A DNA stretch of 44,849 nt from Escherichia phage EC115: the sequence record NC_073080.1, one strand, 5' to 3'. Within the stretch, counting starts at the first letter, position 1. Every line of letters starts with the position of its first letter. The position numbers and the translations under genes are program-made. The notes under the pieces are model-generated. The model saw only the letters and a program-made list of their open reading frames with translations, was not told the DNA's origin and made no database searches. This document shows, piece by piece, positions 11,761 to 40,642 of the stretch.

Positions 11761-11764
11761 CGAA

Positions 11765-12076
11765 GCGGGACAGGCGGGACGTCCCGTTTTGTCCCGCCAC
11801 CATTAAACCGCATATATACTCACTTTCATTGCATAAACTAAAAGCGGGACAGGGGTGCTGTCCCGATCTGTCCCGCCCCTCAAAAGTGAATGGCTATGCG
11901 GTTTTTCTGCATAAAACAAACGGGACAGAAAGCGGGACAGAATGAGGCGGGACAAAGCGGGACAGCACCCCTGTCCCAGTCAGTGCTGCCGCTGGTTTTA
12001 GCCGATCGGGACAGGCGGGACAAAGCCCAGTCTTTCAGACTAGACGGGGGTCAATGGCCCCCCTCGTCTGAGACTG
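11765..12076. repeat. Iteron array: about 13 copies of GCGGGACA(G/A) in both orientations plus a ~48 bp imperfect palindrome
   Basis: Direct and inverted GGGACAG copies, including GGGACAG-N5-CTGTCCC and GGGACGTCCC palindromes; ends with AGTCTTTCAGACTAGACGGGGG-N7-CCCCCCTCGTCTGAGACTG; 33-mer shared exactly with the array at 39942-40099. Confidence 0.75.
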
Positions 12077-12144
12077 AATAAGGTTTGTTTTAAATTCGCT
12101 GATACAATGACCGACGGCAACTGCATAAAAAGGGGGACTGCATA

Positions 12145-14787
12145 ATGGCAGATCAGGCAGCGGGCATCACGCTCAAGGCGGACGTCGCGCAAATTAAAAC
12201 GGCTAATACTGTGCTGGACACATTCGCGCAGAAATCCGAGAACACAGAACAGAAAGTAAAGAAATTAAACGACACACTCGGCAAGTCGAAAAAGGTTACT
12301 GGCGACGCCGCGGGCGGAATGGAAAAGTTAGCGACTGAATCGCAGCGCGCCGCCGACGGCATGACGAAACAGGAGCGACTAGCCAGCCGATTAGGCATGT
12401 CGACCAAAAACCTGGGATTTGCTTCACGGAACGCGGCATTCCAGTTACAGGATATTGCGGTAACGCTTGAGATGGGTATGCCGGTGCACCGCGTCATGCT
12501 TCAGCAGTTACCACAGCTAACCGGCGCATTCGGCGGATTAGGTAACACGCTGCGTTATGTTGCGGGCTTCCTCGGCCCAGTAGGGATCGGACTTGCGGCA
12601 GTAACGGCGACGTTAGGCGTGGGCGTGGCAATCACGTCACGGGCAGAGAACCAGGTAGCCGCGCTTAATAAGACGCTGGCGCTGTCCGGTAATATTTCAG
12701 GCCTCACAGCTAACCAGATCCTTGTGCTGTCCGAGAACGCTGAGCGCATGGGCGGGTCATTTCGCAAGACGCGTGACACAATCCAGGCGCTGGCGGCGGC
12801 GGGTGTGAAAGCGGGTGGTGACTTCGGCGCATTGGCTAAGGTAGTTAATGACTTTGCGAAGGTGTCCAGCCAGCCGATCGAGGATGTGGTGGCGGCGGTG
12901 GCGAAGCTGTCAACCGACCCCGTTGGCGGACTGCGTGCGCTGGCGGATAAGTATCACGTCGTAAACGAAGCGCAGATCCAGCAGGTACAGTCGCTCGTTG
13001 ATGCGGGTCGTGAGACAGACGCAGTTGCGTTGGCTAACAAAACAGCCGCTGCGTCGTTCACCAGTATGACCAATGAGATCAAGGCGAACATGGGTACGCT
13101 TGAGCGATCTATGAACGTCGTCACATCGGCAGCCAAATCAATGTGGGATGCCATCCTGGATGTGGGCCGCGCGCAGTCCTCCAATGAGTCCGAGATGAAA
13201 GCGCGCGAATCACTACAGCGCATGACCACGGCTTACTATGCCGAGATGAAAGCGGTAAACGCTGCCGGTGGGGTAATGACTGAAGCGCAGAAAGCACGTA
13301 TTAACATGCTTTACAGCGAACTGGTCGCCCAGGAAAAAGTGGTGGCGTCGCTCACCCTGCGTAACCGTGCTGAGCGAGACAACGCCCGCGCCGCAGACGA
13401 ATCCGCAAAGGCGAACGAGGAGGCCAACCGCACTGCCCGTGACCGCGCCGCGTTCGAGAAGGAATACGCCACCAACGCTAAGAAGCGCGCCGACGAGATC
13501 GCCCGCCTCAATTTGCTGAATAAGCGCGGCGTTATTGATGAGAAAGAACTAGCCGAGGCGGTGAAGCAGGTAAACGAGCGGTACAAAGACCCAGCCCCGA
13601 AAAAGGCCGCGGCTGTTCGCGTGGATGCCGGTATGAAAATGCTGGAAGTCGCACGGAGCGAACTGGCCCAGCTTCGAGAATCCGGCAAGCAGATCGAAGC
13701 CAACGCGTCTACGCAGACCCGCACGCAACGCGCTCAAGCGGCCTTAAACAAGCTGATCGCCGACAATGAGCAGTTAATCGCTGCGAGCAAAGAAAGAGCG
13801 CTAACGGCAGCAGAAAAGCAGCAATTAGTCGAGTTCGGGCGCGTGAAGGAAGTCCGCGAGCAGATCGTCGAAGAAGCCAAATTGCTGGATGCGAAAGAGC
13901 AGCAGGTTAAGGCGCACGCGCAGATCGATGCCTTCGTTAAGAACCAGAACGCCGAACTAAAAGCCACCGCCGCGGGGTATGCGCTTTCCACTCGCGAAGC
14001 GGCAAACCTGCGCGAAGAATTGCAGCTAATTGACCGCCTGAAGCGGGTTGGCGCTAACGATACCGATATTGACAAGGCGGTGTCTAAGCTGCGAGAAGTG
14101 CAGGAAGCACAGACCGGCGCTAACGCCTCGTTATGGGATGGATTCAGTCGCGGGCTTAAGGATAGCGTGGATGAAATGGGTAACGGATATACGCAGATGG
14201 CGTCGCTCACGAAATTTACATTCAGCGCTATGCAGGACACGATGAACGAGTTTTTCGAGACTGGTAAGCTGAACGCAAAGGATATGGTTAAGTCCATCCT
14301 GAGCGAATTAATCAAGCTGGCTACCTCGCAGGCGTTCAAGTCCATCGTTAGCGCTTTCGGTGGTGACGGCGGCAAAAACGGATTGTTCGGCGCTATCTTC
14401 TCTGGCCTCACTAAGAATGCGGACGGCGGAGCGTACACAGGCGGCAATCTCGCGGCCTATTCGGGGAAAGTGGTAAGCCAGCCTACCTTTTTCAGTTATG
14501 GCGTCCAGGCGTTCGCTAAGGGCGCTGGGTTGATGGGTGAGGCTGGACCCGAGGCCATCATGCCACTGAAGCGCGGGCCGGACGGGAAACTGGGCGTTGC
14601 CGCGTCTGGCGCAGGCGGTGGTATGGTCGTGACGACTAACGTTTACACGGGGACCGGTAAGACGGACACCAGTGTTAGCGGGCCAGACCCACGTACCGCG
14701 CAGGCGTTCGGCAAGCAAATCACCGAGGCGGTGAAGTCCGAGATCGTGAAAGCGACTAAACCAGGTGGTGTACTTTACAAACGATGA
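12145..14787 (+). CDS. Tail tape measure protein
   Basis: 880 aa, Ala/Gln-rich coiled-coil with Gly-rich C-terminal region; follows G/GT and precedes the M-L-K-I-J block. Confidence 0.9.
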   Translation: MADQAAGITLKADVAQIKTANTVLDTFAQKSENTEQKVKKLNDTLGKSKKVTGDAAGGMEKLATESQRAADGMTKQERLASRLGMSTKNLGFASRNAAFQLQDIAVTLEMGMPVHRVMLQQLPQLTGAFGGLGNTLRYVAGFLGPVGIGLAAVTATLGVGVAITSRAENQVAALNKTLALSGNISGLTANQILVLSENAERMGGSFRKTRDTIQALAAAGVKAGGDFGALAKVVNDFAKVSSQPIEDVVAAVAKLSTDPVGGLRALADKYHVVNEAQIQQVQSLVDAGRETDAVALANKTAAASFTSMTNEIKANMGTLERSMNVVTSAAKSMWDAILDVGRAQSSNESEMKARESLQRMTTAYYAEMKAVNAAGGVMTEAQKARINMLYSELVAQEKVVASLTLRNRAERDNARAADESAKANEEANRTARDRAAFEKEYATNAKKRADEIARLNLLNKRGVIDEKELAEAVKQVNERYKDPAPKKAAAVRVDAGMKMLEVARSELAQLRESGKQIEANASTQTRTQRAQAALNKLIADNEQLIAASKERALTAAEKQQLVEFGRVKEVREQIVEEAKLLDAKEQQVKAHAQIDAFVKNQNAELKATAAGYALSTREAANLREELQLIDRLKRVGANDTDIDKAVSKLREVQEAQTGANASLWDGFSRGLKDSVDEMGNGYTQMASLTKFTFSAMQDTMNEFFETGKLNAKDMVKSILSELIKLATSQAFKSIVSAFGGDGGKNGLFGAIFSGLTKNADGGAYTGGNLAAYSGKVVSQPTFFSYGVQAFAKGAGLMGEAGPEAIMPLKRGPDGKLGVAASGAGGGMVVTTNVYTGTGKTDTSVSGPDPRTAQAFGKQITEAVKSEIVKATKPGGVLYKR

Positions 14788-37230: not shown

Positions 37231-37560
37231 ATGAATGTAAACGACGCAATCGAAATGTTAACGACGACTGTTAGCAGTGAAACAAGCCGGTCATGGGCTT
37301 ATACCGATGCCGTTGGGGCGGTGCTATTTGAGGTCGAGCGCCTGCGCAGTGTAGAAAAAGAATTACGCGCCAGGCTGGAATTGCTCAACGGTACGGCGGC
37401 GAGCAAGCTACAAAAACACAATGAAGAAATGGAAGAATACAAAAAGCAGGTTATCCGTTTGCGCGCCGAGGGCAAATCCTGGGCGATGATTGCCGAGTTG
37501 ACCGGAATTAATCAGAGCACAGTGCGCTCTTGGGTACGCAATAACAAAACTTCTAAGTAA
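37231..37560 (+). CDS. HTH DNA-binding protein (putative regulator)
   Basis: 109 aa; helical N-terminus and C-terminal HTH-like segment (SWAMIAELTGINQSTVRSW). Confidence 0.6.
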   Translation: MNVNDAIEMLTTTVSSETSRSWAYTDAVGAVLFEVERLRSVEKELRARLELLNGTAASKLQKHNEEMEEYKKQVIRLRAEGKSWAMIAELTGINQSTVRSWVRNNKTSK

Positions 37561-37570
37561 GGCCACGGCA

Positions 37571-39835
37571 ATGAGCTTAATTAAATTCGCTGTAACAAGA
37601 CCCGCTAAAAAAGGCGAAAAAGCCAGGGCGGAAAACTTCCAGATGACGACCGATGAGTTTTTCGAATTTATCAAAGATGCGAAAGAAATCTCCTCGGTGC
37701 ATATCAACAAGACGGAAGATAAAGCCGAGTATGCGCGCCGCAAGCGTAAGGCCGACGGCATCGTGGCGTATACCAGTGACGGATTGCGTCGTAAGACCAG
37801 TGCGGTGGACCGCTCGATCCTGTTCTTTGATATCGACCGCACCGACACTCGCACCTTGCGCCGCTGCCGTAAGGCTTTCATCGATGCGGGTCTGGAACAC
37901 GTATTCCACACCACTACGGGCGACCGCCACCCGCTGAAGGGCGGAACGCGTTGCGCCCGATTCCTGGTGCTCACTGACAAGCCTGTCCCGGCGGAAGACC
38001 TGGGCCGTGTCCAGTATGCGCTATTACACCAACTTGGTCTGTCAGATGTGGACTTCGACGATTGCACGAAAGACACAAACCGCCTGATGTACCTGCCACA
38101 CCAGCAGTCTGTTATTAAGTGCCACTACGGAAAACGTGCCCGAGTCCGTCGTCTGCTTCGCCTGGCGGATAAGTTGGGCGTGGAGAAGGAGGAAGTACGC
38201 CGCGAACTAACCCAGGGCGATGACGCAGTGGCAGACGGCATTCTGGACTGGTGCTTCCAGGCAGGATTCGAGGAGTTATCTTCCGGTCGCGGTTATGAAG
38301 TGCCGTGCCCGAACGAACATCTGCACAGCGGCGAAGGGTCGACGGCTATCATGGTCAAGGATGGCGAGATCCGTTTCAAGTGTATGCACACCGGCAACGA
38401 GTGTTGCTCGGAACTGAATAGACACCAGCACCTGGCGCTGCGTCTTATCGGGATCCCTGACCACCTGAACGTCGAGCCACACAACATGTCCCGTAAGCAA
38501 ATCGCCGCCATCCTTCCGGGGCTGGACGACGAGGAAGTCGAATCCTTATATGAACATATTGTTGATGCGGTTGGCGACGGCGAAGAATACGGCGTGTGCA
38601 CCGATGCGGATCTGGATAACGAGCCGGTTGCGCTGTTCAGCAAGCACGACCCGATCATCGAGGGGTTGATTAACTTCAAATCGACCTGGTACATGGCGGG
38701 TGAGTCGAATATTGGTAAGTCTTTCTACGTGCTGGGTCAAATGGGCGCTGTTGCCGCCGGTATTCCGTTCGGCGGTGCGAAGGTCGTCCAGTCTCATTGC
38801 TTCTATTTCGATGCGGAAGGTGGTGAAGCCTCCAACCAGCGTAAAGAAGCATTGCAGATTAAATACGAGCACGACCTGGACAAGCTGCACATTATCGATC
38901 TGCAGTCACGCGGCTGGGATATCACCAGCAAATCCGGCTTGCGCGAAGTTATCAGCTTTATCAACCGCACCGCTAACGGCGAACCGGTTGGCCTGGTGGC
39001 GTTCGACTCACTCAACCAGACTGTTGCGCTGCGGTCCGCCGATGCTAAACCGTTCGACGAGAACAACGCCAGCGATATGGGTGAAGTGGTCAAAGCGCTG
39101 AAAGCCATTGCGGAAAATACAGGTGGCAGTGCGGGCGTCATCCACCACCCGGCGAAGGGTGCCAACGGCAGCAGAACCCCACGCGGATCCGGCGCGCTGC
39201 ATGGTGCTGTCGATTCTGCGTTCTTCCTGGAACAGCCGGACGACAACCAGCCCGGACAATTGAACCTGTATCACGAAAAGTCACGTAACGGCATCAAGCA
39301 AGCGCCGCGCGGCTTCGTCCTGCTCAAGTGCAAGGTGAAGGTGGATCTCCGCAAGTCAGAAGCGTTCGAGGTGCACCAGTCCACCAGCACCGGGCCAGAC
39401 TTCGGCGACGTGGTTGCCGGATGGGACGTCAAGCCGATTGCCTCCACGCCACGCGACGAGACTCTCTACCTCGTACCGGTTGCCCTGGCACCGTTCGCTA
39501 TTGAACAGGCGAAGGCCGCGGGCAAAGCAGCAGTTAAAGAAGAGAACACCGCCGGACCGCGCAACGAAAAAGAGAAAGTGCTTTATGCGGCACTGGAAAA
39601 ACTGATGGAAGATAACCCGGACCATACTGGATTCAGTAAATCGGCAATTGTCCGCCAGGCTGGGCTGGCAAAAGGTGGCACTTCGACGAAGGCAATCGAC
39701 GATATGGTAGAGCGCGGAGTGATAGGTTTTTACACCGATCCGCACACTGGGGCCATCTATGGGTCGTCTAATTTGGTCATCAAATCGGATATCCCCATCA
39801 CGCTTTCAGCGACCGATGACGATTTAAAAGATTAA
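37571..39835 (+). CDS. DNA primase / RecA-like P-loop helicase with C-terminal winged-helix-like domain
   Basis: 754 aa; N-terminal acidic FFDIDRTD motif, Cys/His zinc-binding segment, Walker A GESNIGKS and Walker B-like FYFDAEGG, C-terminal ~120 aa resembling a winged helix. Confidence 0.75.
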   Translation: MSLIKFAVTRPAKKGEKARAENFQMTTDEFFEFIKDAKEISSVHINKTEDKAEYARRKRKADGIVAYTSDGLRRKTSAVDRSILFFDIDRTDTRTLRRCRKAFIDAGLEHVFHTTTGDRHPLKGGTRCARFLVLTDKPVPAEDLGRVQYALLHQLGLSDVDFDDCTKDTNRLMYLPHQQSVIKCHYGKRARVRRLLRLADKLGVEKEEVRRELTQGDDAVADGILDWCFQAGFEELSSGRGYEVPCPNEHLHSGEGSTAIMVKDGEIRFKCMHTGNECCSELNRHQHLALRLIGIPDHLNVEPHNMSRKQIAAILPGLDDEEVESLYEHIVDAVGDGEEYGVCTDADLDNEPVALFSKHDPIIEGLINFKSTWYMAGESNIGKSFYVLGQMGAVAAGIPFGGAKVVQSHCFYFDAEGGEASNQRKEALQIKYEHDLDKLHIIDLQSRGWDITSKSGLREVISFINRTANGEPVGLVAFDSLNQTVALRSADAKPFDENNASDMGEVVKALKAIAENTGGSAGVIHHPAKGANGSRTPRGSGALHGAVDSAFFLEQPDDNQPGQLNLYHEKSRNGIKQAPRGFVLLKCKVKVDLRKSEAFEVHQSTSTGPDFGDVVAGWDVKPIASTPRDETLYLVPVALAPFAIEQAKAAGKAAVKEENTAGPRNEKEKVLYAALEKLMEDNPDHTGFSKSAIVRQAGLAKGGTSTKAIDDMVERGVIGFYTDPHTGAIYGSSNLVIKSDIPITLSATDDDLKD

Positions 39836-39941
39836 ATTTTGCGCGCATTGGTTGCCATTTTGAGTGTTTTTAGCTGGTAGCATTGGTTGCCGTGTAGTGT
39901 GAATATAATGCATAGTTATGCAATAAAACTGCATAAAGTAA

Positions 39942-40099
39942 GCGGGACAAAAAGCGGGACAAACAGGAGGCGGGACAAAGCGGGACAGCACCCCTGTCCC
40001 GCCCCGGATGACGCGGCCTGACGAGGAGCGGGACAGCGGGACAGCACCCCAGTCTTTCAGACTAGACGGGGGGTCTGTCACCCCCCTCGTCTGAGACTG
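39942..40099. repeat. Second iteron array: GCGGGACA(A/G) repeats plus the same ~48 bp imperfect palindrome
   Basis: Six or more GCGGGACA copies; shares GCGGGACAAAGCGGGACAGCACCCCTGTCCC and AGTCTTTCAGACTAGACGGGGG...CCCCCCTCGTCTGAGACTG with the array at 11765-12076. Confidence 0.75.
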
Positions 40100-40258
40100 C
40101 ATAAAATCCAGGATTGCATAACGCACGGCAGCATGTTGCGGATTGCGGTCGTCGATGAACTAGGCAACCAATGCGAGGTGCAGAATGGCGGGCGGGAAAT
40201 GCAGTTTGCAGTCACAGCAGATAGCGATCAACTTTTTCATGCGCGTGATTAATATTGG

Positions 40259-40287
40259 TTGCATTCGGCCTGGCACCTTGCTATATT
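40259..40287 (+). promoter_or_regulatory. Sigma70-like promoter flanked by TTGGTTGCA copies
   Basis: TTGCAT-N17-TATATT; 9-mers at 40255-40263 and 40286-40294; GAGGA RBS before the ATG at 40316. Confidence 0.5.
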
Positions 40288-40315
40288 GGTTGCACACCAA
40301 CATGAGGACTGAACA

Positions 40316-40642
40316 ATGAAAGCGATTATCTGGAATTACGCAATGGCTATGGCGAAGGCACAAGAAGCGGCGGAGTTCGCCGGTGAAGGAGCGGAAGCGG
40401 TCGAAAGACTATCGGCAGCGTGGTCCGTTGTTCGCGTCACGCAGCAGGCCATCGCCTGTATGCTGGAGCGCCGCTTCGACACGATGGCAGAGATCCAGCC
40501 ACTAGCGAACGCAATCCAGGACTACGCGCTTGCATTTGCCCGTGAGCGCCTGGCGTATCGCTTCGGGATCGGTGAGACGGCAGTGACAAACGTCGCCCGG
40601 ATTAAAGCCCAGCGCGAGCTATTCGCCCAGCTTGCGAAATAA
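40316..40642 (+). CDS. Hypothetical protein
   Basis: 108 aa Ala-rich helical protein, first gene downstream of the promoter. Confidence 0.55.
   Translation: MKAIIWNYAMAMAKAQEAAEFAGEGAEAVERLSAAWSVVRVTQQAIACMLERRFDTMAEIQPLANAIQDYALAFARERLAYRFGIGETAVTNVARIKAQRELFAQLAK

Follow-up and report, generated by a model that had tools for sequence, protein, structure and literature searches.

Two CGGGACA repeat arrays of Escherichia phage EC115 as predicted iteron-type replication origins, one of them in the tail operon

The genome of Escherichia phage EC115 (NC_073080.1), a complete Dhillonvirus genome of ~45 kb that was analysed here as one window of 44,849 nucleotides rotated so that the small terminase gene comes first, carries two dense arrays built of the repeat word GCGGGACA, which we propose to be replication origins. 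Array 1 interrupts the tail operon between the T frame and the tape-measure gene, and array 2 lies directly 3' of the helicase-primase gene. By analogy, the closest precedent for array 1 would be oriR of phage SPP1. SPP1 has two similar elements composed of repeats and AT-rich DNA, namely oriL, in or next to the initiator gene, and oriR, which breaks the conserved order of the late structural genes and has transcription signals on both sides; the SPP1 initiator binds both, and the late-region copy was proposed to stall forks and to trigger the theta-to-sigma switch and concatemer synthesis (PMC6316719, PMC3485210). The Dhillonvirus genome likewise pairs an origin-like element beside the initiator gene with a similar one in its late region. 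The proteins differ: in SPP1, gp38, the loader and a DnaB-type helicase are distinct proteins, while we propose for Dhillonvirus a single polypeptide that joins an archaeo-eukaryotic primase (AEP), a RepA-like helicase and a winged helix, a protein set apart from gp38 by its Pfam and PHROGs family (AAA_25; phrog_3228) rather than by direct comparison. The repeat sequences are also different, and a conserved palindrome, known here from sequence alone, accompanies each Dhillonvirus copy.

The oriV of RSF1010 combines RepC iterons, an AT-rich region and the inverted-repeat priming hairpins ssiA and ssiB, and is served by the RepA helicase and the RepB' primase (PMC8567376). A similar origin logic is seen in EC115, with iterons, AT-rich DNA and a putative priming hairpin. 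Its helicase core resembles RepA (1g8y), the hexameric helicase type of IncQ replicons, and its primase domain has a tentative match to the catalytic domain of RepB' (3h25). RSF1010, however, has three separate proteins, a dedicated RepC and two ssi sites, whereas Dhillonvirus has one palindrome per array, with a putative role in priming, and no RepC-like match was found in Pfam or PHROGs for the proteins tested. In pRN1 the essential origin element is a large stem-loop directly downstream of orf904, its AEP-helicase-winged-helix gene, a layout that recurs in phages such as BIP-1 (PMC4234260). The palindrome at 40050-40098, a potential stem-loop, likewise lies 3' of the Dhillonvirus replication gene. 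pRN1 has a superfamily 3 (SF3) helicase and no origin iterons, in contrast to the RecA-fold, RepA-like helicase (AAA_25) of Dhillonvirus and the dense iterons that precede its palindrome; of the ORF904-type combination, the AEP and winged-helix domains are present and the helicase is not SF3.

P4 alpha and SaPI Rep are also primase-helicases with a C-terminal origin-binding domain. P4 has short repeats in two separated cis sites, ori and crr, and SaPI has repeats immediately 3' of rep that flank an AT-rich region; they differ from Dhillonvirus in their SF3 or D5-like helicases, and in their unrelated repeats, and neither is known to have a tail-operon copy. The iterons inside gene O of phage lambda are mirrored by CGGGACA arrays inside DnaD/O-like genes (29 unrelated contigs among the matches listed in the scan described below; Sulfitobacter phage pCB2047-A is a named example). 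An array inside the initiator is not the arrangement of the window, and this likeness bears only on CGGGACA as an origin repeat elsewhere.

Our reading, to which we assign a probability of roughly 0.7, is that both GCGGGACA arrays are iteron-type origins, predicted to serve as binding platforms for the phage's own initiator, a protein of 754 amino acids (aa) with AEP primase, RSF1010-RepA-like helicase and winged helix, and that array 2 is ancestral and array 1 an expanded second copy. Array 1 may itself be a second origin; alternatively, once bound by the initiator, it may stall forks or enhance initiation, the kind of role proposed for SPP1 oriR and P4 crr. Iteron origins are a familiar element; the make-up is distinct here, with a one-protein IncQ-like module and iterons plus palindrome duplicated into the tail operon, which is an unusual location for an origin.

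Anatomy and conservation of the two arrays

The window contains 25 copies of the heptamer CGGGACA where 5.95 would be expected, a count that none of 100 shuffles reached, and 18 of the 25 copies fall into two short stretches, eleven in 11766-12022 and seven in 39943-40043. Array 1 is contained in the 384 bp between the T-frame stop (11760) and the start of the tape-measure open reading frame (ORF; 12145). Its 14 GGGAC cores span 11767-12021 and are split nine to five between the + and - strands; the seven cores of array 2 lie at 39944-40042. Inside clusters the cores are spaced 8-16 nt from centre to centre, and both arrays thus have the form of iterons, in which a short repeat recurs in clusters at intervals of about one helical turn. 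Array 1 opens with a 79-bp unit that is present twice and consists of a palindromic iteron cluster and an AT-rich spacer. Four direct sites and an inverted one come next, then 26 nt of spacer, two more direct sites and a 49-nt imperfect palindrome. The features are as follows (strand is given where one applies).

11763-11798: array 1 cluster a, AAGCGGGACAGGCGGGACGTCCCGTTTTGTCCCGCC; four GGGAC cores in a near-palindrome (+ + - -), beginning 3 nt past the T stop; cores nearly invariant in 14 Dhillonvirus sequences
11799-11841: AT-rich spacer 1, ending in TGCATAAAC; 30% GC; candidate DNA-unwinding element; inverted-repeat partner of 11883-11904
11842-11877: array 1 cluster b; three cores (+ - -); second 79-bp unit; its inner part is in this clade an exact inverted copy of the 19-mer 11959-11977
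11878-11918: AT-rich spacer 2, GTGAATGGCTATGCGG...CTGCATAAAA; 39% GC; the module common with array 2 begins here
11919-11977: array 1 cluster c; four direct cores and one inverted, spaced 12, 15, 10 and 14 nt; contains the 34-mer matching 39967-40000
12004-12024: array 1 cluster d; two direct cores, 9 nt apart
12027-12075: imperfect palindrome of array 1; 18 pairs; hairpin possible on either strand; loop hypervariable
12076-12144, + strand: tape-measure leader; highly conserved; invariant extended -10-like TGATACAAT at 12100-12108 and two CTGCATAA motifs
39895-39942: AT-rich segment upstream of array 2; 27% GC; TAGTTATGCAAT, CTGCATAAA and a GAATAGTTATGCAG element common to Jersey-like relatives
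39943-40043: array 2; seven CGGGACA (+ + + + - ... + +), starting 108 nt past the helicase-primase stop
40050-40098: second copy of the palindrome, imperfect, same as that of array 1

The three AT-rich segments, which adjoin the iterons, compare with a GC content of 54.6% for the genome. GGGACAG-N5-CTGTCCC is found at 11846-11864 and 11959-11977, GGGACGTCCC at 11776-11785, and TGCATAA near array 1 at 11830, 11908, 12122 and 12139. The last ~200 bp of array 1, including the palindrome, recur in the same orientation 28 kb away at 39929-40104 with ~82-90% identity; the two arrays have in common an exact 34-mer (11944-11977 and 39967-40000), and ~72 nt and 57 nt can be aligned at roughly 90% identity. 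The initial annotation of this DNA had described a gap of ~385 bp with about 13 direct and inverted repeat copies, these same sub-motifs, an imperfect palindrome of ~48 bp and a recurrence at 39942-40099, and in all of these respects it was confirmed. It had also taken the gap to be neither coding nor a CRISPR array, and we agree. The only sizeable ORF in array 1, of 63 aa at 11890, has a start codon that is not conserved, and no conserved ORF spans the array; because its spacers vary by single-base indels among 14 relatives and that ATG is unconserved, the region is considered non-coding. A CRISPR array was ruled out, the repeats being 7-9 nt long, in both orientations and irregularly spaced at 5-55 nt.

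As the same annotation had proposed, related phages were searched for the repeat clusters. The 1.1 kb surrounding array 1 are 99.9% identical to Escherichia phage vB_EcoS_011D5 and match 157 phage records, nearly all Dhillonvirus; array 1 is found in essentially all 157 Dhillonvirus records and in 15 of the 15 Dhillonvirus junctions retrieved from IMG/VR (L146 being truncated by the contig end), and no natural deletion of it was seen in these records and junctions. The annotation had named a host-genome repeat as a possible source, and this can be dismissed, since a BLAST comparison of the array with 5,426 E. coli genomes gave no match.

For each array, 14 Dhillonvirus versions were aligned. 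The columns of the GGGAC cores are identical to the window in 97% (array 1) and 94% (array 2), against 83% and 85% for the other intergenic columns, and in both sets of 14 sequences the spacers drift in sequence and by single-base indels. Both palindromes give good folds on the two strands alike (z -3.6 to -4.2 overall, about -3.6 to -4.1 for the copy in array 1). Across 18 distinct versions from both arrays the 18 pairs of the palindrome are invariant, the only exceptions being two pairs that have a single mismatch apiece. The loop is hypervariable, and none of the 18 pairs has a compensatory change. The retention of the cores, the drift of the spacers and the stems without covariation therefore fit protein-recognised DNA words and a sequence-specific palindrome, and do not fit a conserved RNA fold.

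Several side observations concern the same regions. vB_EcoS_011D5 is 100% identical to the window over array 1 and only ~91% identical over array 2 (39836-40320 versus L001 3179-3661), and the two regions therefore have separate histories, as expected of mosaicism. Two GenBank assemblies, UAE_MI-01 and Kente, and the IMG/VR contig 3300045988_009799 (L146) end within array 1, at the equivalents of ~11872, 11971 and 12039, and several further database records begin at most 800 bp from it; most likely assemblers break at the two-copy repeat, and these ends do not mark a physical genome end. TGCATAA is present 14 times in the window against 5.5 expected, and eight of the 14 copies flank the arrays (11830, 11908, 12122, 12139, 39916, 39930, 40098 and 40115). 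The related GAATAGTTATGCAG is kept upstream of the iterons in the Jersey-like L128 and L134 despite their different iterons. Its reverse complement, TTATGCAGA, is one mismatch off what we take to be a relaxed DnaA-box consensus, TTATNCACA, and the TGCATAA and GAATAGTTATGCAG elements are possible host-factor sites.

The helicase-primase, its relatives and unrelated CGGGACA arrays

Two neighbouring genes are candidates for the protein that binds the arrays.

37231-37560, + strand: HTH_23, sigma-70 region-4-like small protein, directly upstream of the helicase-primase gene; alternative candidate binder
37571-39835, + strand: helicase-primase, 754 aa; AEP-type primase N-terminus, Cys/His cluster, RepA-like (AAA_25) helicase and C-terminal winged helix at ~aa 666-737; proposed iteron binder

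In Pfam the helicase-primase matches AAA_25 only (E 2.3e-19), and in PHROGs it belongs to phrog_3228, 'replicative helicase-primase'. Its AlphaFold model has a mean pLDDT of 79.7, and in Foldseek the helicase core was best superposed on the RSF1010 RepA hexameric helicase 1g8y (TM 0.71 normalised to the target, root mean square deviation 3.0 A). Because the N-terminus had no sequence-level match in PDB or Pfam, a fold search was needed. Residues 1-345, modelled on their own, resemble AEP primases, best the cyanophage S-2L PrimPol 6zp9 (E 2.5e-5) and, more tentatively, RSF1010 RepB' bound to initiator DNA, 3h25 (E 2.9e-3, probability 0.99, TM only 0.45 normalised to the target). Residues 666-737 have in the model the helix-helix-helix-strand-strand pattern of a winged helix. 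The predicted start of its recognition helix is TSTK or TNTT in CGGGACA lineages and NYKK, KRRP, RYSD, DRYK or NRRP with other repeats, a suggestive sign that it tracks the iteron type among homologs. The naming of the primase C-terminal domain as a candidate binder in the initial annotation was apt.

As a lead on this putative reader, its helix-turn-helix resembles a single TALE-like (transcription activator-like effector-like) repeat of the BurrH/Bat kind. The C-terminal profile (39560-39832; aa ~687-704, GFSKSAIVRQAGLAKGG) has BurrH, 4cj9, a TALE-like protein, as its only PDB match, and among 1.84 billion proteins it also finds the TALE-like repeat proteins P0146 (Pfam TAL_effector), P0136 and P0145, the common motif being GFSxxxIVKIAG-x-GG. 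Single TALE-like repeats score only 12-17 bits, a score reached in 0 of 3000 shuffles, and other repeat proteins are also among the matches; the E-values of the TALE-like matches are large because repeats are summed.

Homologs of the helicase-primase fall into Dhillon-type proteins, 67-99% identical, and those of Jersey-like Salmonella phages and metagenomic contigs, 43-48% identical. In every relative examined, the gap directly 3' of the gene contains a dominant short repeat in both orientations and then a long imperfect palindrome, often with an AT-rich GAATAGTTATGCAG element before the repeats. The dominant repeats in the 43-48% group are GGGGGAGA (FSL SP-031), ACTCGCAA, TGTGCGGAA and AGGGATAAA; that of L130, GCTGCCAAC, is uncertain as an iteron and may be a promoter or operator motif of L130. 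The repeats thus stand beside the initiator gene and differ between related replicons, as is typical of an initiator and its iterons. Versus shuffles, the relatives' palindromes have z of -5.3 in L129 and ~-2.2 in L128 and L133, and ~-0.5 to -1.3, which is background level, in L130, L134 and L124. A 68%-identical lineage (L009/L132), which has no GenBank relative, retains CGGGACA and the same palindrome; when a tail-module copy was sought in this lineage, a scan with the palindrome pattern returned one locus only. In the complete genome of Salmonella phage FSL SP-031, seven of the nine GGGGAGA sites are at 13756-13907, directly after the helicase-primase gene, and the T/tape-measure junction has neither gap nor array, as the description of array 1 as an insertion had implied. 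Given the repeats directly after the gene in the relatives and the empty junction of FSL SP-031, the position of array 2 is therefore considered ancestral and array 1 a Dhillonvirus-specific addition. In Rhizobium phage RHph_N65 (L124 4590-4745), twelve GGCGGAGAT and then a GC hairpin lie directly 3' of the annotated helicase/primase gene, a candidate unannotated origin in a named phage; this protein was found not through the window protein but through an unrelated CGGGACA-array protein, to which it is 28% identical.

A scan of IMG/VR for three GCGGGACA at short distances gave at least 120 stretches, and 96 of those listed are non-Dhillonvirus (examples are L102 9314-9423, L113 7645-7971, L122 5890-6153 and L127 2750-2900); the counts given here are among the matches listed. 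By de novo clustering of ORFs, 59 of the 96 loci carry one of three replication-initiator families, and in 57 of the 96 the array abuts or sits inside the initiator gene. The first family (22 loci) comprises AAA_25 primase-helicases whose heads are Prim-Pol/PriCT_2, Zn-ribbon/Toprim or none detected, and the second (8 loci) matches a PHROG annotated as DNA primase (phrog_35358); in these two, 28 of 30 arrays overlap the 3' end of the gene or begin within ~100 nt of it. The third (29 loci) is a DnaD/O-like initiator of ~280 aa with the array inside the gene. The helicase-primase is the only window protein with homologs there (15-17 loci, ~25% identity, in the helicase core). The same scan with the reversed motif, used as a control, gave 107 stretches: 89 are coding tandem repeats whose spacing is divisible by three, a single one has sites in both orientations, and no replication gene adjoins any of them. 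The raw number of CGGGACA triple arrays is similar to that of the control, and is not in itself evidence; it is the type of array and the neighbouring genes that differ, which shows a specific link between CGGGACA arrays and replication-initiator genes. Seven loci with an O-like initiator and internal arrays (L013, L019, L022, L035, L042, L056 and L072) also encode a stand-alone 122-aa DnaA C-terminal DNA-binding domain (Bac_DnaA_C, E 5e-21).

A working model can be drawn from these features. The winged helix would read the GGGAC words, about one helical turn apart, and several protomers would gather on the array; the adjoining AT-rich segment would then melt, allowing the RepA-like helicase to load itself. 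The palindrome, once single-stranded, could form a hairpin on either strand and serve the primase domain as an assembly or priming signal, on the model of RSF1010 ssiA/ssiB and the pRN1 stem-loop.

The HTH_23 protein may have another target. ATTGGTTGC is present in 14 copies against 0.45 expected (6174, 22280, 25481, 27379, 27396, 30353, 37034, 39847, 39882, 40164, 40254, 40285, 40840 and 43427), often as pairs with 17-35 nt between them in intergenic DNA immediately before genes. It includes the palindrome TTGGTTGCACACCAA, and L132, of the lineage with 68% identity, has it as well. A phage promoter or operator motif is the probable identity of ATTGGTTGC, a natural target for the HTH_23 protein, which fits better as a regulator of ATTGGTTGC than as the iteron binder.

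Weighing of the alternatives

A number of points count against the origin reading. Binding to the repeats and origin firing are what we infer from the DNA and protein sequences. The GC skew follows gene orientation and says nothing on an origin, and the Foldseek TM-scores of the primase domain are modest (0.45-0.50). Recognition-helix starts as similar as KRRP and NRRP go with different repeats, and when profiles of the putative DNA-binding domains from the four initiator groups sharing CGGGACA were compared with one another, no homology was found; the winged helix is therefore a candidate reader of the motif. The HTH_23 protein, which co-varies with CGGGACA among close relatives while other lineages have HTH_3 proteins, could be the array binder. 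Finally, as the palindrome stems never vary, constraints on structure and on sequence are inseparable, and the palindrome could instead be a transcriptional signal.

A first alternative is a transcriptional platform, in which the arrays are operators or enhancers for a phage regulator such as the HTH_23 protein and gate read-through into the tape-measure and post-helicase-primase genes; the palindrome would then terminate or attenuate transcription, and TGATACAAT would be the promoter for its restart. We regard it as improbable, although both arrays do lie between transcription units, HTH_23 accompanies the Dhillon-type arrays, and all 14 aligned Dhillonviruses have an identical TGATACAAT between the palindrome and the tape-measure start, a conservation that suggests a tape-measure gene with its own promoter just past array 1. 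The palindrome has no T-tract, its 3' flank being GAATAAGG or GCATAAAA, and no Rho-independent terminator was called on the + strand at either copy; consensus promoter and terminator scans gave no sigma-70 site, and only minus-strand hairpins built of the iterons themselves. The separate, enriched and promoter-proximal ATTGGTTGC suits a regulator better, a phmmer search near the CGGGACA arrays of unrelated phages found only one weak HTH_23 match, and the arrays inside O-like genes and the linkage across phages would be left unaccounted for. The late-gene activator site listed in the initial annotation similarly fails to explain why the same architecture recurs 3' of helicase-primase genes across phages. 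A transcriptional platform could possibly coexist with the origin reading. Slightly less probable again is a neutral or selfish duplicate, an origin module recombined into the tail operon and kept there without a role in replication. The absence of array 1 from the Salmonella relative FSL SP-031, its appearance as a rearranged composite of direct and inverted copies and the breaking of assemblies there would suit this reading, but its retention throughout the Dhillonvirus records and junctions, with conserved cores and invariant stems amid drifting spacers, would not.

A structured RNA, whether a processing site, an attenuator or a small RNA in the late transcript, is suggested by the stable hairpin and by long inverted repeats such as I1 (11846-11877 with 11946-11977, 32 nt at 94%), yet is very unlikely. 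I1 is specific to one clade, most relatives having GCGGGACG in one arm in place of the GGGGTGCT of the window while the other arm is unchanged; Rfam and tRNA scans gave zero matches, compensatory changes are absent from the palindrome, conservation tracks the GGGAC word in either orientation, and the same architecture is built of unrelated sequences after other helicase-primase genes. The RNase III-type site of the initial annotation falls with it. We give the least credence to a packaging (pac/terminase) site or a partition-type centromere. Repeat clusters are typical of both, and several records start or end at array 1, but the terminase genes stand at the start of the window, a long way from either array, the points at which records break are what assemblers would produce at a two-copy repeat, and arrays elsewhere associate with replication genes; for a partition-like site, also listed in that annotation, we found no evidence, and no ParA/ParB-type gene was noticed, although no systematic search was made. 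Among the interpretations it had offered, the origin-like multimeric platform is thus the one we favour.

The linkage to several initiator families permits a broader and more speculative extension of the duplicated-origin reading, which we consider doubtful. CGGGACA would be a widely shared origin 'word' of at least three unrelated initiator classes (AAA_25 primase-helicases with AEP or Toprim heads; phrog_35358; DnaD/O-like), implying a common unrecognised reader, which could be a host factor or a small DNA-binding module spread by shuffling. The Dhillonvirus tail copy would then be a programmed initiator-bound barrier for the theta-to-concatemer switch, or would couple tape-measure expression to replication.

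Implications for Dhillonvirus replication

Dhillonviruses are common coliphages, included in the BASEL collection, and in the literature searched no relevant description of Dhillonvirus or Jersey-like origins, or of GCGGGACA, was found. This work locates two origin-like elements exactly and puts forward a candidate initiator domain. A simple annotation rule is also suggested for the large and poorly annotated family of phage primase-helicases, namely to look for lineage-specific short repeats and a palindrome directly after the gene. For phage engineering, the arrays are best avoided when deletions or insertions are planned, and an array with one protein may provide an orthogonal replicon. If array 1 acts like SPP1 oriR, it would offer a Gram-negative model for the replication-mode switch of lytic siphophages, and would account for the conserved interruption of the otherwise tight G/T-tape-measure gene order.

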